46,547 bases of DNA from a virus, in IMG/VR virus record IMGVR_UViG_3300032167_000209, positions 1-46,547 of that record, one strand, 5' to 3'. Position 1 is the first letter of the stretch. The number at the start of each line of letters is the position of its first letter. The notes under the pieces were generated by a model, which did not search any database, was not told the DNA's origin, and was given only the letters and a program-made list of their open reading frames with translations. Below are positions 224 to 21,428 of this stretch, piece by piece. Both the position numbers and the translations under genes were made by a program.

Positions 224-252
224 ATTATACTATATTTTTTATAAAAAATCAA
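224..252 (-). promoter_or_regulatory. sigma70 consensus promoter P1 (-35 TTGATT, 17-nt spacer, -10 TATAAT)
   Basis: rc of plus strand reads TTGATT-TTTTATAAAAAATATAG-TATAAT; one of six near-identical copies in the window. Confidence 0.6.
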
Positions 253-288
253 TAAGGAGAATAATCTAATTAGATTATTCTCCTTATT
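253..288 (-). terminator. perfect palindromic hairpin overlapping the stop of 284..1057, followed by a T-run on the minus strand
   Basis: AATAAGGAGAATAATCTAATTAGATTATTCTCCTTATT, then GATTTTTTAT in minus orientation. Confidence 0.5.
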
Positions 289-1057
289 TTACTAGATATT
301 TATCTCCCATAAGCATTTCTAATGTGATTTTATCCCTTTCCCAATAAGGGATTCTTACTAATGGAATATTGTGAGATAAAGCATATTCGTTTTTTATTTT
401 ATCTCTTTTTTGAATTTGTAATAAAGAACTATTTTTTGTCCATTGTTTAGAAGTTTCTTTAAAATGCTGTTCTCCATCAAATTCAATAAAACGAATTATA
501 TGATTATTGTCGCTATCAAAAATAGCAAAATCAAAACGATAAGGATGTCCTTCATATTGACCGGGTATAGCATATTCTAACTGATAAAAAATATTATTAT
601 TTTCTAATATAGATAAAATATTTTGAATTCCAATTGAATATTTTATACATCCACAAGAATAAGTATGTAGCGTTGTTAAATTATTACTGTCTACTTCACA
701 AAAGTTTCCACAATCGCATTTACAAATCCAAATAGCATTACCGTTTTTATTACTTTTATTAGCGTATTTTATAGCCGTTAATTTTCCAAATTTTTTATTA
801 GTTAAATCTTTACGAAGTGCTTTGCCAATATTTTTATTTTTTTCACATCCACAACTTTTGTGTTTTTTTAAATTACTAGCATCTTTTACACAATAACTGC
901 CACACGCTTTACATTGACAATTCCATCTAGTAATTCCATTTTTATTTGGGGCTCTACCAACGATTTTAAAATATTCATTTTCTGTATTTGTTAAATCTTT
1001 AAAATTATGTGGAGGTTTTTTTGTTGGGGTATAAAATTCTAAATCTTCATAATTCAT
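284..1057 (-). CDS. putative homing-endonuclease-like protein, paralog 1: N-terminal repeated Cys-rich Zn-ribbon motifs plus C-terminal Vsr/DUF559-like PD-(D/E)XK nuclease domain
   Basis: complete ORF with TAA stop; Shine-Dalgarno AGGTGAAAT; repeated W-C-C-CG...SCGC motifs; C-terminal RFDFAIF...IEFDGEQHF...RIPYW matches the Vsr-like nuclease pattern; paralogous to 2741..3475 and 5020..5862. Confidence 0.55.
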   Translation of the reverse strand: MNYEDLEFYTPTKKPPHNFKDLTNTENEYFKIVGRAPNKNGITRWNCQCKACGSYCVKDASNLKKHKSCGCEKNKNIGKALRKDLTNKKFGKLTAIKYANKSNKNGNAIWICKCDCGNFCEVDSNNLTTLHTYSCGCIKYSIGIQNILSILENNNIFYQLEYAIPGQYEGHPYRFDFAIFDSDNNHIIRFIEFDGEQHFKETSKQWTKNSSLLQIQKRDKIKNEYALSHNIPLVRIPYWERDKITLEMLMGDKYLVK

Positions 1058-1083
1058 ATATATATTTCACCTCATAAAAATAT

Positions 1084-1129
1084 GAAGTTTGACTGGGCAA
1101 ATTTTATATTCTTTGCCCAGTCAAACTTC
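1084..1129 (-). terminator. rho-independent terminator downstream of the vWA gene
   Basis: 18-bp perfect stem GAAGTTTGACTGGGCAAA / TTTGCCCAGTCAAACTTC, followed by ATATTTTTAT on the minus strand. Confidence 0.7.
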
Positions 1130-1136
1130 ATAATTT

Positions 1137-2693
1137 TTACTTAATACAGGAATATCTATCCTGATTCAGAACTTCATACATCAAATCAATTGCGGTCTTT
1201 CCGCTCATAATCTGTTCAAATAGCGTAGGACTAAAGCCACTTACAAAAGTAATGCCATTCTGAACTTTCATAGGAATGTTATTGTGTCTTGCATCCACAT
1301 TCCAAAAGATAAGATTAGGACAATGATAACCATTTGCTTCCCACTTATTAGAAATATTTTCCATTAAAGTATTCTGCTCAATATCATCATTGTTTTTATA
1401 TCCATACCAAGAATGTCGTCCACGAGCGGCATCAAACTCCATATCACTCAAAATAATGATATTCTCGGGCAGGTCAGCCTGAGTCATATGACCGGCCAGT
1501 GCGGTGTTGAGAATCAAATCAAAGGTTGCTTCGATATTGGTATTCTCACACAAATTGGTCTCCCAGATACGAGCGACCTTATCGACAAAGTCCACACCTT
1601 CGGTAGCAATCAACTGAGGACGAGAACTGAAAGAGATATAATGACCCTTGAAGGGGCCGTTAGCCTTTTCAGCACAATACAGACCCAGAGAGATTGCGAC
1701 GTTGATAGGAGCAGATGCCTGAGCGCCGCACATAGAGCCGGAAGTATCAACTACCGCCAGACCATTAAAGGAAGCGCCGTTGAAGTAATCAGCAAGGTTA
1801 TCCCAATACTTATTTACCATCAAACGGTTAGTATTATCCATAGCAGGCATAGTAGTCTTATAGCCAGAGCCATAATTCCAACTACGATTAAGCATCTTTA
1901 CAGCCTCGTGAACACACTCATAAGGATACAGAGCCTTGGCATTGACTGCCTTAGTTTCATCCTTTGCGAAGTCTGCGTAAGACTGAACGGTGGGGTCCTG
2001 ACGCATACGCTCCAGATCGTGACGCGCAAATGCGTTCTTATAAATCATACCAGCGCGAGAAGGAATCTTGTCGAACTCGATTTCATCCCACTTGCCGGCG
2101 GACATAAGACGTTCCAGGACATTGATACGCTCGCGCAGAATAGACAGAGTCTTACGATACTGCTTATGAGTCATACCAAATGCCATACGAGTCTTATTGC
2201 CCAGGTCTCTGGAAACCTGAGAAGAAGTATTCTCAGACTTCAACCACTTTGCTAGCAGAGAAGGAGTCTTACACTCCATATCCAGAGCCAACTGTCTCTT
2301 CATCATCTGGAAAGCGTCCTTTTCCAGTTTAGTGCCTACGAATTCGTAGAGGTCATCATAGCGACCAAACATAGGCACATACTGAAGATTACGACGCATA
2401 GCATCAATATCGTTATTAGCCAACCACTTGATGCAAACGCGGAAGAATCTGCGCTCGCCCTGTCCACCTCGAATATCTCGTAGATAGAAAAGGCATTTCA
2501 AAGCATAAACAGGATTTTCTTCATAAGCCTTCTTAAATAGAAGAATTACGTCTTCATCACTTCTCTTACGGTAGGCTCCACCCATAGCAAACATATCGAG
2601 CAAATCACTTTTAGTAGTTTTATGAGTTAGTGCACCATTTTCAGTACGAGTGAAATTAGTATTATCCTTCAAAGCATTTAGCAATACAGACAT
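1137..2693 (-). CDS. vWA-domain protein with helical N-terminal region (Ro60/TROVE-like architecture, DUF2828-like)
   Basis: 518-aa intact ORF with TAA stop; Shine-Dalgarno AAAGGAG; MIDAS motif LAVVDTSGSM (DxSxS) at about residue 317 with downstream T and D motif elements typical of vWA; no in-frame TAG. Confidence 0.8.
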   Translation of the reverse strand: MSVLLNALKDNTNFTRTENGALTHKTTKSDLLDMFAMGGAYRKRSDEDVILLFKKAYEENPVYALKCLFYLRDIRGGQGERRFFRVCIKWLANNDIDAMRRNLQYVPMFGRYDDLYEFVGTKLEKDAFQMMKRQLALDMECKTPSLLAKWLKSENTSSQVSRDLGNKTRMAFGMTHKQYRKTLSILRERINVLERLMSAGKWDEIEFDKIPSRAGMIYKNAFARHDLERMRQDPTVQSYADFAKDETKAVNAKALYPYECVHEAVKMLNRSWNYGSGYKTTMPAMDNTNRLMVNKYWDNLADYFNGASFNGLAVVDTSGSMCGAQASAPINVAISLGLYCAEKANGPFKGHYISFSSRPQLIATEGVDFVDKVARIWETNLCENTNIEATFDLILNTALAGHMTQADLPENIIILSDMEFDAARGRHSWYGYKNNDDIEQNTLMENISNKWEANGYHCPNLIFWNVDARHNNIPMKVQNGITFVSGFSPTLFEQIMSGKTAIDLMYEVLNQDRYSCIK

Positions 2694-2740
2694 ATTTAAT
2701 CTCCTTTTTCACCTTAGCCTTTTTCTAGGCCGTAATTTGA

Positions 2741-20742: not shown

Positions 20743-20764
20743 AAGAATACCTCCTTAATGAATA

Positions 20765-20854
20765 TGGCGGAGGAAGTAGGATTCGAACCCACGGGCGGTT
20801 TCACCCGCCTATTGTTTTCAAGACAATCGCCTTCGTCCACTCGGCCATTCCTCC
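20765..20854 (-). tRNA. tRNA-Ser (anticodon UGA), type II
   Basis: anticodon stem-loop ATTGT-CTTGAAA-ACAAT; long variable arm GGCGGGTGAAACCGCCC; T-loop TTCGAAT; CCA. Confidence 0.8.
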
Positions 20855-20875
20855 ATATAGTAAGCGCGTTAGCGC

Positions 20876-21229
20876 TTACATATTATTTTCAAGTTCTCTT
20901 ACATTTTCACGAGCAGTATTAGCAGCCTGAATAGAGTCATTACAATAATTAATCATACGATCATACCAAGCCTTTTCCTTTTCATAGGAAGCCTTGGCTT
21001 CTGCCATCTTCTTCGTTGCTCGAGCCAGACGCTTGCGCGCAATCTTTTCATTACAACGTGCGGCCGCAAGTTCTCGACCCTTTGCTTCGTCAAACGCGTC
21101 ACCCGGAGTCAGTTTAGCGACACCGCGCACTGTCTTACCCGCATAAGTGGAAACCGCAATTACTTGATAGGGAGTACCATCAGTCTTCTTTGCAATAAAA
21201 TACTTATACTTATCCAGAGAATACTTCAT
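20876..21229 (-). CDS. hypothetical protein (117 aa)
   Basis: start reassigned to ATG at 21227-21229 (Shine-Dalgarno AAAAAGGTG) because the track ORF's first 35 codons run through a tRNA; TAA stop inside a small palindrome. Confidence 0.55.
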   Translation of the reverse strand: MKYSLDKYKYFIAKKTDGTPYQVIAVSTYAGKTVRGVAKLTPGDAFDEAKGRELAAARCNEKIARKRLARATKKMAEAKASYEKEKAWYDRMINYCNDSIQAANTARENVRELENNM

Positions 21230-21263
21230 AATATAACACCTTTTTCTCATTTTATTTTTTGAA

Positions 21264-21348
21264 TGGAGCCGGTGGTCAGATTCGAACTGACGTGGGTATA
21301 GCCGACGGCTTACAAGACCGCTCCAATCGACCACTATGGGACACCGGC
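21264..21348 (-). tRNA. type-II-like tRNA, 85 nt; anticodon loop CTTGTAA suggests UGU (Thr), isotype uncertain
   Basis: acceptor GCCGGTG/CACCGGC; 3-bp D-stem with 11-nt D-loop; 13-nt variable region; T-arm GTCAG-TTCGAAT-CTGAC; CCA; anticodon stem has two G-U pairs. Confidence 0.5.
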
Positions 21349-21399
21349 ATATTTAAGTTAAGGGATAAAAGATTTTCTATCCCTTAACTTTGTAAATAT

Positions 21400-21428
21400 A
21401 TTATATCATTTTTTTTTAAAAAAATCAA
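21400..21428 (-). promoter_or_regulatory. sigma70 consensus promoter P6
   Basis: rc reads TTGATT-TTTTTAAAAAAAAATGA-TATAAT. Confidence 0.6.

Follow-up and report, generated by a model that had tools for sequence, protein, structure and literature searches.

A uniform class of predicted sigma-A-type promoters heads tRNA and accessory-gene units in a TAG-recoded phage

The viral record IMGVR_UViG_3300032167_000209 of IMG/VR, of which the whole stretch of 46,547 nt was analyzed (the window), carries six near-identical copies of the element TTGATT-N17-TATAAT, all on the minus strand and one of them ahead of an amber suppressor transfer RNA (tRNA). It is highly probable that these sites are functional promoters of the sigma-A type that head tRNA and accessory-gene units. 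The fuller statement, in which the promoters also fire early and are linked to the usage of TAG in the genes they serve, we regard as likely, with correspondingly less assurance. This gut phage is TAG-recoded, because reading through TAG raises the coding coverage from 0.80 to 0.93 and extends open reading frames (ORFs) to as much as 1262 aa. Almost all genes of the window are encoded on the minus strand. ARAGORN and Rfam identify nine tRNAs, one of them having the anticodon CTA; a permissive Rfam search adds a tenth at 19958-20091.

An exact search for TTGATT-N17-TATAAT returned six matches, with the positions and the orientation described in an earlier note on this DNA, whereas 0.09 are expected in the 46.5-kb window from dinucleotide-preserving shuffles, and 0 of 100 shuffles reached six. 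Relative to their shared 29-nt consensus the sites carry 0-2 mismatches (0.00 such sites expected by chance). The weight-matrix scan proposed in that note, carried out with a matrix derived from 273 independent sites of related phages, retrieved exactly six matches scoring 48.9-54.9 bits, while the next-best position in the window reached 2.2 bits and the maximum in shuffled sequence was 3.5 bits. The promoter class in the window is sharply bimodal, without weak members. Only these six sites stand out, because generic sigma-70-like matches occur at about the level of chance (107 versus 89.9 ± 9.3 and 99 versus 93.8 ± 9.6). Alignment with flanking sequence delimits a conserved stretch of about 45 nt, from about 5 nt before the -35 to about 16 nt past the -10 (approximately -38 to +16), beyond which the flanks of the six sites are unrelated.

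All six sites have a perfect TATAAT as -10 and a 17-nt spacer, and their -35, TTGATT in every case, equals TTGACA at four of six positions, with TTGA invariant. The earlier note had ascribed an extended -10 to all of them; the TG is present at four (3607, 4991, 20419 and 21400, named here by their lowest coordinate), is missing from 224 and 8402, and is an optional element of this promoter class. Its description of the spacer as ending in TGA or TTA is correct except at 224, where the spacer ends in TAG. Each site is intergenic and co-oriented with the downstream gene or tRNA. The downstream feature, placed by the same note about 25-40 nt away, indeed follows at that distance at 224, 4991 and 8402, where 31-35 nt separate the -10 from the start codon (35 nt for the gene behind 8402), and lies farther away at the other three: about 113 nt to the first ATG and 131 nt to the ATG having a Shine-Dalgarno sequence at 3607, with a leader of about 110-125 nt that contains two hairpins; at 20419 the suppressor tRNA comes after 101 nt, and at 21400 tRNA-Thr comes after 51 nt. 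At 224 and 8402, the T-run behind TTGA serves also as the tail of a terminator. A further terminator hairpin, at 45905-45945 on the minus strand past tRNA-Leu, is followed by TTGATTTTTTTT and has no -10 box; the word TTGATTTTT thus occurs, too, as the tail of a simple terminator, in keeping with the overlap of terminator and promoter at 224 and 8402.

The distribution of the sites becomes clearer when the flanks of the window are included. The protein of the major-vault-protein (MVP) homologue behind promoter 8402, a 54-aa ORF near position 1 and a protein at the edge of the window are all encoded on JGI contig Ga0318466_10001127 (185,543 bp), and the genome is circular or circularly permuted, because the window spans the ends of that record. 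A 65.8-kb composite of the window and about 10 kb of the same genome on each side holds 15 TTGATT sites and one TTGACT variant, 16 of 16 intergenic and on the coding strand. Six are those inside the window, three lie beyond position 1, and seven are in a tRNA-rich region directly past position 46547, where a tandem pair spaced by 88 nt stands immediately before a tRNA-Pro/Val/Gln/Leu array at the right edge of the window. The three sites beyond position 1 precede a NAMPT-like gene, a metallophosphoesterase gene, and an 87-aa ORF with an AAA_33 kinase-like gene behind it. All sites of the composite lie within tRNA arrays or accessory-gene units, and no site of the weight-matrix class was found in its 24.5-kb and 9.7-kb virion/fibre blocks (about 34 kb), which agrees with the earlier observation that the fibre genes lack such promoters. 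The promoter-free stretches of the window, 8481-19708 minus its last gene and 21432-45920, contain matches to DUF285, Gp10_C, Mtd_N, tail-fibre N-terminal, Hoc-like and virion proteins, together with a GIY-YIG homing endonuclease.

The same element recurs in related phages. No close relative has been deposited among 50,697 phage records, to which a megablast of 25 kb gave just one 81-nt tRNA match; the pattern TTGATTTTTNNNAAAAAANATNNTATAATAT, which fits all six window sites, was found in at least 114 stretches of IMG/VR contigs, often in several copies, with many of the contigs 130-200 kb and one 402 kb in length. A looser pattern yielded 311 sites within the loci listed. For 177 of them, a co-oriented ORF starts no farther than 300 nt away (median 35 nt past the -10), a tRNA is the first downstream feature at 49 of 311 sites, and the next downstream ORF (100 aa or more) shares the strand of the site in 220 cases versus 65. 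In the family consensus, an A-rich block around -47 to -43 precedes TTGATT, and behind this hexamer come TTT, three variable positions, A6, TAT(G), TATAAT and ATATAT, then a purine as the seventh base past the -10 (76% A, 22% G), any base and AA, and past the start an A/G-rich stretch with the Shine-Dalgarno sequence; the spacer positions are partly fixed by the search pattern, the upstream block and everything after TATAATAT are not. Of 278 family members, 53% have TG and 41% have TRTG. Other -35 hexamers, TTGACA (34 sites), TTGACT (25) and TTGAAA (20), are found in these phages at the identical spacing of 17 nt from TATAATAT, as would be anticipated for -35 recognition by sigma-A. Hairpins of -12 kcal/mol or lower ending within 10 nt upstream of the -35 accompany 28% of the sites versus 7% of control positions. 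About one site in three thus stands behind a terminator hairpin that has the T-run of the promoter itself as its U-tract.

The genes that follow the motif in the relatives point to its class. Directly behind it, 118 non-redundant TAG-free proteins are encoded (the full set of 141 has a median length of 114 aa), with recurrent families that include sigma-70 (5 of 118), MVP (4), RNA ligase, metallophosphoesterase, nucleotidyltransferase and peptidase, and with single cases of NAPRTase, GyrB/topoisomerase II, RecJ, PARG, isochorismatase, HTH regulators and DUF2828. The families listed for these 118 promoter-proximal proteins include none of structural or lysis function. The arrangement of promoter followed by MVP gene is found in four related phages. 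Because genes of these kinds characterize the early and middle regions in large lytic phages, we infer, chiefly on this basis, that the promoters form an early class.

Recognition of the element by a host sigma factor is suggested by its occurrence in bacteria. A search of bacterial genome assemblies gave more than 120 stretches with this 31-nt pattern, overwhelmingly from bins of Clostridia (Acutalibacteraceae, Oscillospiraceae, Ruminococcus, Lachnospiraceae, Eubacteriales); several of the pattern-bearing bin contigs, 150-176 kb long, are evidently binned phages. In the isolate Ruminococcus flavefaciens MA2007 the pattern is located in an ordinary chromosomal neighbourhood, 28 nt ahead of a phosphoesterase gene. 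The first ORFs behind the motif in the Clostridia bins include spo0A, prephenate dehydratase/chorismate mutase (pheA-like), formate/nitrite transporters (focA-like), LacI- and AraC-type regulators and an EAL protein, as well as genes of phage type. Together with the hexamers and their spacing, these occurrences bear out the assignment of the sites to host-type sigma-70 promoters in the earlier note. Judging by sequence, the element has the look of a strong sigma-A promoter in the likely host group, of which the phage copies appear to be an idealized, very uniform version, and the host of the phage is most likely a Clostridia bacterium. A Bacteroidetes or crAss-like context, which TAG recoding had suggested, was considered and rejected in view of the sigma-A-type motif and of genome matches that are overwhelmingly to Clostridia bins, plus the Ruminococcus isolate.

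By its placement, the suppressor tRNA is under one of these promoters, as the earlier note had proposed. The unit runs from promoter 20419 through a 101-nt leader to the CTA tRNA, the tRNA with an insertion, tRNA-Gly, tRNA-Lys and a 432-aa ORF, and no terminator is predicted between the promoter and the CTA tRNA. The 432-aa ORF is probably the final gene of the unit: no terminator is predicted before it, and a two-way terminator (18378-18404) lies behind it. Twelve CTA tRNAs occur in related loci, several at 61-260 nt behind a motif, and the promoter-led arrangement recurs in loci L044, L081 and L022, the last with a tRNA clearly homologous to that of the window. Promoter 20419 looks constitutive and of host type, so that any delay in suppression would come from accumulation of the tRNA and its competition with release factor, and not from late transcription of the tRNA.

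In the code-switch model, genes of the first class should avoid TAG. None of the TAG-free genes has TAG as its stop codon, so that they are read alike in both codes. Over 65.8 kb, promoter-led genes contain 7 TAG in 7103 codons (0.99 per 1000) versus 38 in 10,984 (3.46 per 1000) in the other class (p = 0.001), and 22 of 26 promoter-led genes are TAG-free versus 14 of 30 fibre-block genes (p = 0.005). When homing-endonuclease-like genes are removed, the counts are 3 versus 35 (p = 7e-5). In TAG-recoded related loci, promoter-led ORFs have 2.3-3.8 versus 6.6-7.6 TAG per 1000 codons (paired Wilcoxon p = 0.01-0.04), on crude ORF calls and with the class of genes upstream of a locus's first promoter not assignable. 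The avoidance of TAG is thus weaker than claimed in the earlier note: it is significant over 66 kb and in the relatives and fails to reach significance in the window. That note's description of the fibre genes as full of TAGs is contradicted by the 14 fibre-block genes that have none. Codon usage differs as well. Promoter-led genes use CAG more than CAA (102 versus 76), fibre-block genes show CAA 229, CAG 41 and TAG 38 and favour TTA, AGA, CCA, ATA and AAA, codons that are read by phage-encoded tRNAs. A sign test over 18 phage tRNAs against codon usage (12 versus 6) was not significant, the large differences being all in the same direction. The contrast in codon usage fits two expression regimes but also different gene histories.

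These results can be combined into a sequence of events. The host RNA polymerase, unmodified and carrying sigma-A, would fire the promoters immediately upon DNA entry, so that genes readable in both codes and the suppressor tRNA would be made first, and the TAG-containing virion genes would become fully translatable only with the build-up of suppressor tRNA. A SigA-like sigma factor that related phages encode behind this promoter probably sustains these units there.

Several observations weigh against early firing and against the link to TAG. K-mer enrichment on 293 upstream regions of promoter-less genes revealed no distinct late-promoter motif, and just Shine-Dalgarno and tRNA T-arm words were enriched. 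No terminator precedes promoter 21400, whose -35 begins 4 nt past the stop codon of a 687-aa fibre gene, or promoter 20419 behind the 97-aa ORF, and read-through from the fibre operon can consequently also reach the tRNA units. In the window, promoter-led genes contain 5 TAG in 2821 codons versus 38 in 11,416 for the rest (p = 0.25), and 8 of 10 promoter-led genes versus 15 of 31 others are TAG-free (p = 0.14). Avoidance is not absolute, since four of those five TAGs are in a single nuclease gene, the first past promoter 3607. Composition accounts for part of the depletion, since promoter-led genes are poorer in off-frame TAG too, by a factor of 1.2-1.8 (14.0 and 15.6 versus 25.7 and 18.6 per 1000), and in-frame TAG is depleted beyond this off-frame control with an odds ratio of 0.43 (p = 0.04). 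Finally, if the phage carries a SigA-like sigma, the promoters could stay active or peak later.

This last point leads to the most serious alternative, in which the sites are the regulon of a phage SigA-like sigma, with the uniform TTGATT and the T-run/A-run spacer tuned to it; sigma made from one such promoter would amplify all of them, and the units would be middle or continuous and not strictly early. The commonest family directly behind the motif in relatives is indeed a full-length sigma-70 with regions 1.2, 2, 3 and 4. These proteins of 283-301 aa lack region 1.1 (loci L018, L033, L040, L054, L082 and L242-L276), are closest to Firmicutes SigA structures (PDB, E ~1e-118), match NCBIfam RpoD models below the equivalog cut-offs, and keep the recognition motifs of regions 2.4 and 4.2 (FSTYATYWIRQ and ERIRQIE). 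The sigma gene is preceded, at 36-212 nt, by the motif or its TTGAC[AT] variant in some 22 of the 35 closest phage sigma loci. Among deposited phage genomes, RpoD-like genes are rare, with 42 records, some of which resemble host DNA. Against this alternative, no sigma gene was found in 66 kb of the present genome, nor did a sigma scan of viral contigs give a locus from its sample, and the same extended motif precedes bacterial chromosomal genes, so host sigma-A must recognize it. Because the DNA-contact motifs of the phage sigma are SigA-like, phage and host sigma are more likely redundant than distinct. We therefore consider a dedicated phage-sigma regulon possible but rather unlikely. If the genome does encode such a factor, host sigma-A would be the first to serve the promoters and the phage sigma would follow, and 'early' would mean 'from the start' and not 'only at the start'.

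A more elaborate version, which we put forward tentatively and expect to be wrong sooner than right, is a self-reinforcing circuit that mimics sigma-A, with a SigA-like sigma lacking region 1.1 expressed from the same promoter as the tRNAs, the suppressor and the accessory genes. The unusual uniformity of the promoter (TTGATT, T-run/A-run spacer, ATATAT discriminator) would then reflect adaptation to the phage sigma, and the phage could silence or outcompete host sigma-A while its own units stay on. A steadily rising level of suppressor tRNA would then be the clock that unlocks TAG-containing virion genes, and the terminator-promoter fusions and the AAGAC...GTCTT helices described below would be parts of one compact expression system.

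Another explanation holds that the units are recently acquired accessory cassettes ('morons'), each with its promoter and terminator, and that their low TAG content derives from standard-code donors or from amino-acid and codon composition and not from temporal control of translation. The accessory, patchy content (a restriction-modification pair, a vault homologue, nuclease-like paralogues, DUF2828), the 43% G+C of the MVP region versus about 30-33% nearby, the differences in codon usage and off-frame TAG between the classes, and the terminators bracketing several units are what such acquisition would leave. However, one phage-wide promoter is common to all units, to tRNA arrays and, in relatives, to replication and transcription genes, which makes it the phage's own signal and not one imported with each gene. 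Moreover, TAG is depleted in frame beyond the off-frame control, and the order of promoter and MVP gene is conserved across related phages. Acquisition as cassettes is thus improbable as the explanation of the class. The notion that the motif plays no part in transcription and is a dispersed repeat or the end of a mobile element, for instance a target or by-product of the nearby nuclease-like genes, could draw on the unusually high identity among copies and on three of the six sites adjoining a Zn-ribbon/DUF2726-like nuclease gene (224 and 4991 lie just downstream of one, 3607 just upstream). It is ruled out for practical purposes by the flanks, which become unrelated about 40 nt upstream and 20 nt downstream of the core, an orientation that is strictly that of the downstream gene, the fixed spacing to Shine-Dalgarno sequence and start codon, conserved positions that are exactly the sigma-A contact elements, and the presence of the motif before tRNAs and bacterial chromosomal genes.

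Host-type promoters heading the early units of a phage have well-known precedents. The early promoters of large lytic phages that rely on host polymerase, such as T4 Pe, those of T5 (e.g. PN25) and those of the Bacillus phages SPO1 and SP82, form sets of many closely similar, near-consensus sigma-70/sigma-A promoters, conserved beyond the hexamers in an A-rich block, the spacer and the start region; they stand in tandem before small host-takeover, accessory and tRNA genes and are absent from virion modules. The promoters described here share this architecture, and they are only modestly surprising because it is expected for a large lytic phage. They differ in the TTGATT -35, the T-run/A-run spacer and the Gram-positive TRTG, in being known from sequence alone, and in that the phage is TAG-recoded and one promoter heads its suppressor tRNA. 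In SPO1, the sigma gene (gp28) is itself early and under such a promoter; gp28 redirects the polymerase to a different consensus, whereas the sigma of the relatives has SigA-like DNA-contact motifs. Extended sigma-A promoters of Gram-positive bacteria such as Bacillus and Clostridium read TTGACA-17-TRTGnTATAAT with A/T-rich flanks. The phage family shares with them the 17-nt spacing, TATAAT, the A-rich upstream block and, in about half of its members, TRTG, but its copies are far more uniform and prefer TTGATT over TTGACA. Full-length group 1/2-like phage sigma factors are also found in the cyanophages S-CBS1 and S-CBS3 and in the Microcystis phage MaAM05. Those phages are unrelated to the present lineage and infect cyanobacteria; in the relatives of the present phage, the sigma is under the consensus promoter of tRNA and accessory genes.

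In the code-switch model, standard-code-compatible genes and the suppressor tRNA are expressed first and TAG-bearing structural and lysis genes later (Borges et al., bioRxiv 10.1101/2021.08.26.457843; PMC10879173, on theta ribozymes). The same pattern appears here as a statistical tendency, with TAG avoidance just partial, and, as a difference from those papers, the suppressor tRNA is under a constitutive-looking, host-type promoter. Promoter analysis is absent from both: the word 'promoter' occurs 0 times in the first and once, as T7 promoter in the methods, in the second. Nor is there any in the description of a 136-kb TAG-recoded gut phage with a predicted Clostridia host (PMC10607447). The published evidence for the code switch consists of codon counts alone, to which the promoter class adds a concrete cis element: a strong host-type promoter class that marks TAG-poor units and heads the suppressor tRNA in a TAG-recoded phage that most likely infects Clostridia. 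It would be the first promoter-level support for the code-switch idea in TAG-recoded phages, consistent with the model, where the timing is what we infer. The arrangement suggests that the switch is timed by suppressor-tRNA accumulation from an always-on promoter and not by a late transcriptional switch. In practical terms, the weight matrix could assign genes to expression classes in hundreds of uncultured phages from gut and rumen, and the element offers a compact strong promoter and a promoter-terminator junction for use in Clostridia.

The units headed by the sites are those listed in the earlier note, with refined identities for the DUF2828/vWA protein, the IceA endonuclease and its methylase, the MVP homologue and the tRNA arrays (Table 1).

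Table 1. Promoters of the window and features of the units that they head, in the order of transcription along the minus strand.
Feature	Position	Strand	Details
Promoter 21400	21400..21428	-	-35 at 21428-21423; spacer with TG; -10 at 21405-21400; predicted start ~21393; 48.9 bits
tRNA-Thr(TGT)	21264..21348	-	First feature past promoter 21400; 50.2 bits
117-aa ORF	20876..21229	-	No TAG; no family found; tRNA-Thr unit
tRNA-Ser(TGA)	20765..20854	-	tRNA-Thr unit
97-aa basic ORF	20449..20742	-	No TAG; stop codon 2 nt before -35 of promoter 20419
Promoter 20419	20419..20447	-	Suppressor-tRNA unit; extended -10 TG; predicted start ~20412; 53.7 bits
Amber suppressor tRNA, anticodon CTA	20243..20317	-	Suppressor-tRNA unit; 43.5 bits
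tRNA with ~60-nt insertion	19958..20091	-	Rfam tRNA 42.1 bits; not called by ARAGORN
tRNA-Gly(TCC) and tRNA-Lys(TTT)	19794..19948	-	Suppressor-tRNA unit
432-aa ORF	18410..19708	-	Signal-peptide-like N-terminus; no TAG
Terminator hairpin, 14 bp and T-run	8443..8475	-	Directly upstream of promoter 8402
Promoter 8402	8402..8430	-	Without TG; predicted start ~8395; 54.3 bits
MVP homologue, 816 aa	5916..8366	-	No TAG; MVP_shoulder 1e-22, Vault_3 5e-10
Terminator-like hairpin	5890..5907	-	After MVP gene
Zn-ribbon + DUF2726-like nuclease paralogue, 280 aa	5020..5862	-	No TAG; weak DUF2726 match
Promoter 4991	4991..5019	-	TG; -35 abuts upstream stop codon; predicted start ~4984; 53.7 bits
IceA/NlaIII-type restriction endonuclease	4366..4959	-	No TAG; ICEA 9e-27
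N6/N4 DNA methyltransferase	3646..4353	-	1 TAG; N6_N4_Mtase 2.6e-36
Promoter 3607	3607..3635	-	TG; predicted start ~3600; 54.9 bits
Zn-ribbon + DUF2726-like nuclease paralogue, 250 aa	2741..3493	-	4 in-frame TAG; first gene past promoter 3607
DUF2828/DUF7788 (vWA-like) protein, 518 aa	1137..2693	-	No TAG; homologues in 706 phage records
Third nuclease paralogue, 257 aa	284..1057	-	No TAG
Terminator hairpin, 17 bp	251..288	-	T-tail is the -35 and T-run of promoter 224
Promoter 224	224..252	-	Without TG; predicted start ~217; 54.3 bits
54-aa very acidic ORF	28..192	-	No TAG; behind promoter 224, then RNA ligase and NAD-salvage genes outside the window

The tRNA with the insertion is 134 nt long, with the insertion placed past the anticodon arm. 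An Rfam search around the tRNA units gave one extra tRNA and otherwise noise, with no HDV-like or theta ribozyme beside the suppressor tRNA. A conserved module accompanies the tRNAs: AAAGAC-N5-ACAGCAA, an interior of 40-110 nt, N5-GTCTTG and the next tRNA. Copies lie on the minus strand at 20397-20344, 20202-20100 and 46359-46242 of the window, with three more in the same genome outside it, and the interior contains a whole tRNA-Val in one copy and tRNA fragments in others. The two N5 segments are complementary and co-vary between copies, pairing at 3.26 of 5 positions over 61 instances versus 2.10 ± 0.11 in permutations; the module has no match in Rfam. Two copies begin about 12 nt past the predicted start of a promoter, and one of them lies in the suppressor-tRNA leader. 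The AAGAC...GTCTT module may be a leader-trailer processing helix.

In the promoter-free region, the GIY-YIG homing endonuclease gene (34725-35748, minus strand; PHROG 1.6e-25, 3 TAGs) lies between the fibre-block ORFs 35749-39537 and 32127-34724 and is flanked by 131-137 nt of non-coding, G+C-richer, structured-looking sequence. These flanks would allow for a group I intron splitting one gene; an Rfam search around the gene matched no group I intron model.

Among the accessory genes, the endonuclease at 4366-4959 and the methyltransferase at 3646-4353 make up a phage-borne restriction-modification pair with its own promoter. The three nuclease paralogues share repeated CxC...CGC zinc-ribbon motifs and a weak DUF2726 (nuclease-like) C-terminus, and a homologue also sits behind the promoter motif in one related phage. 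The MVP protein has homologues of 38-43% identity in the uncultured phages LR756500, LR756501 and LR756503 (462-735 kb). Two transcription units away from it, the DUF2828 protein corresponds to entries labelled 'RNA-binding protein' in PHROGs and in the record of phage Tsamsa. In the same genome, directly past position 1 of the window, positions 10166-20165 of locus L236 contain the three further promoter copies described above and encode a co-directional series of RNA ligase, TM2, NAMPT-like protein, NAD synthase, two metallophosphoesterases, AAA_33 kinase-like protein and Band_7, a block that looks like an RNA-repair and NAD-salvage module of the kind linked to counter-defence.

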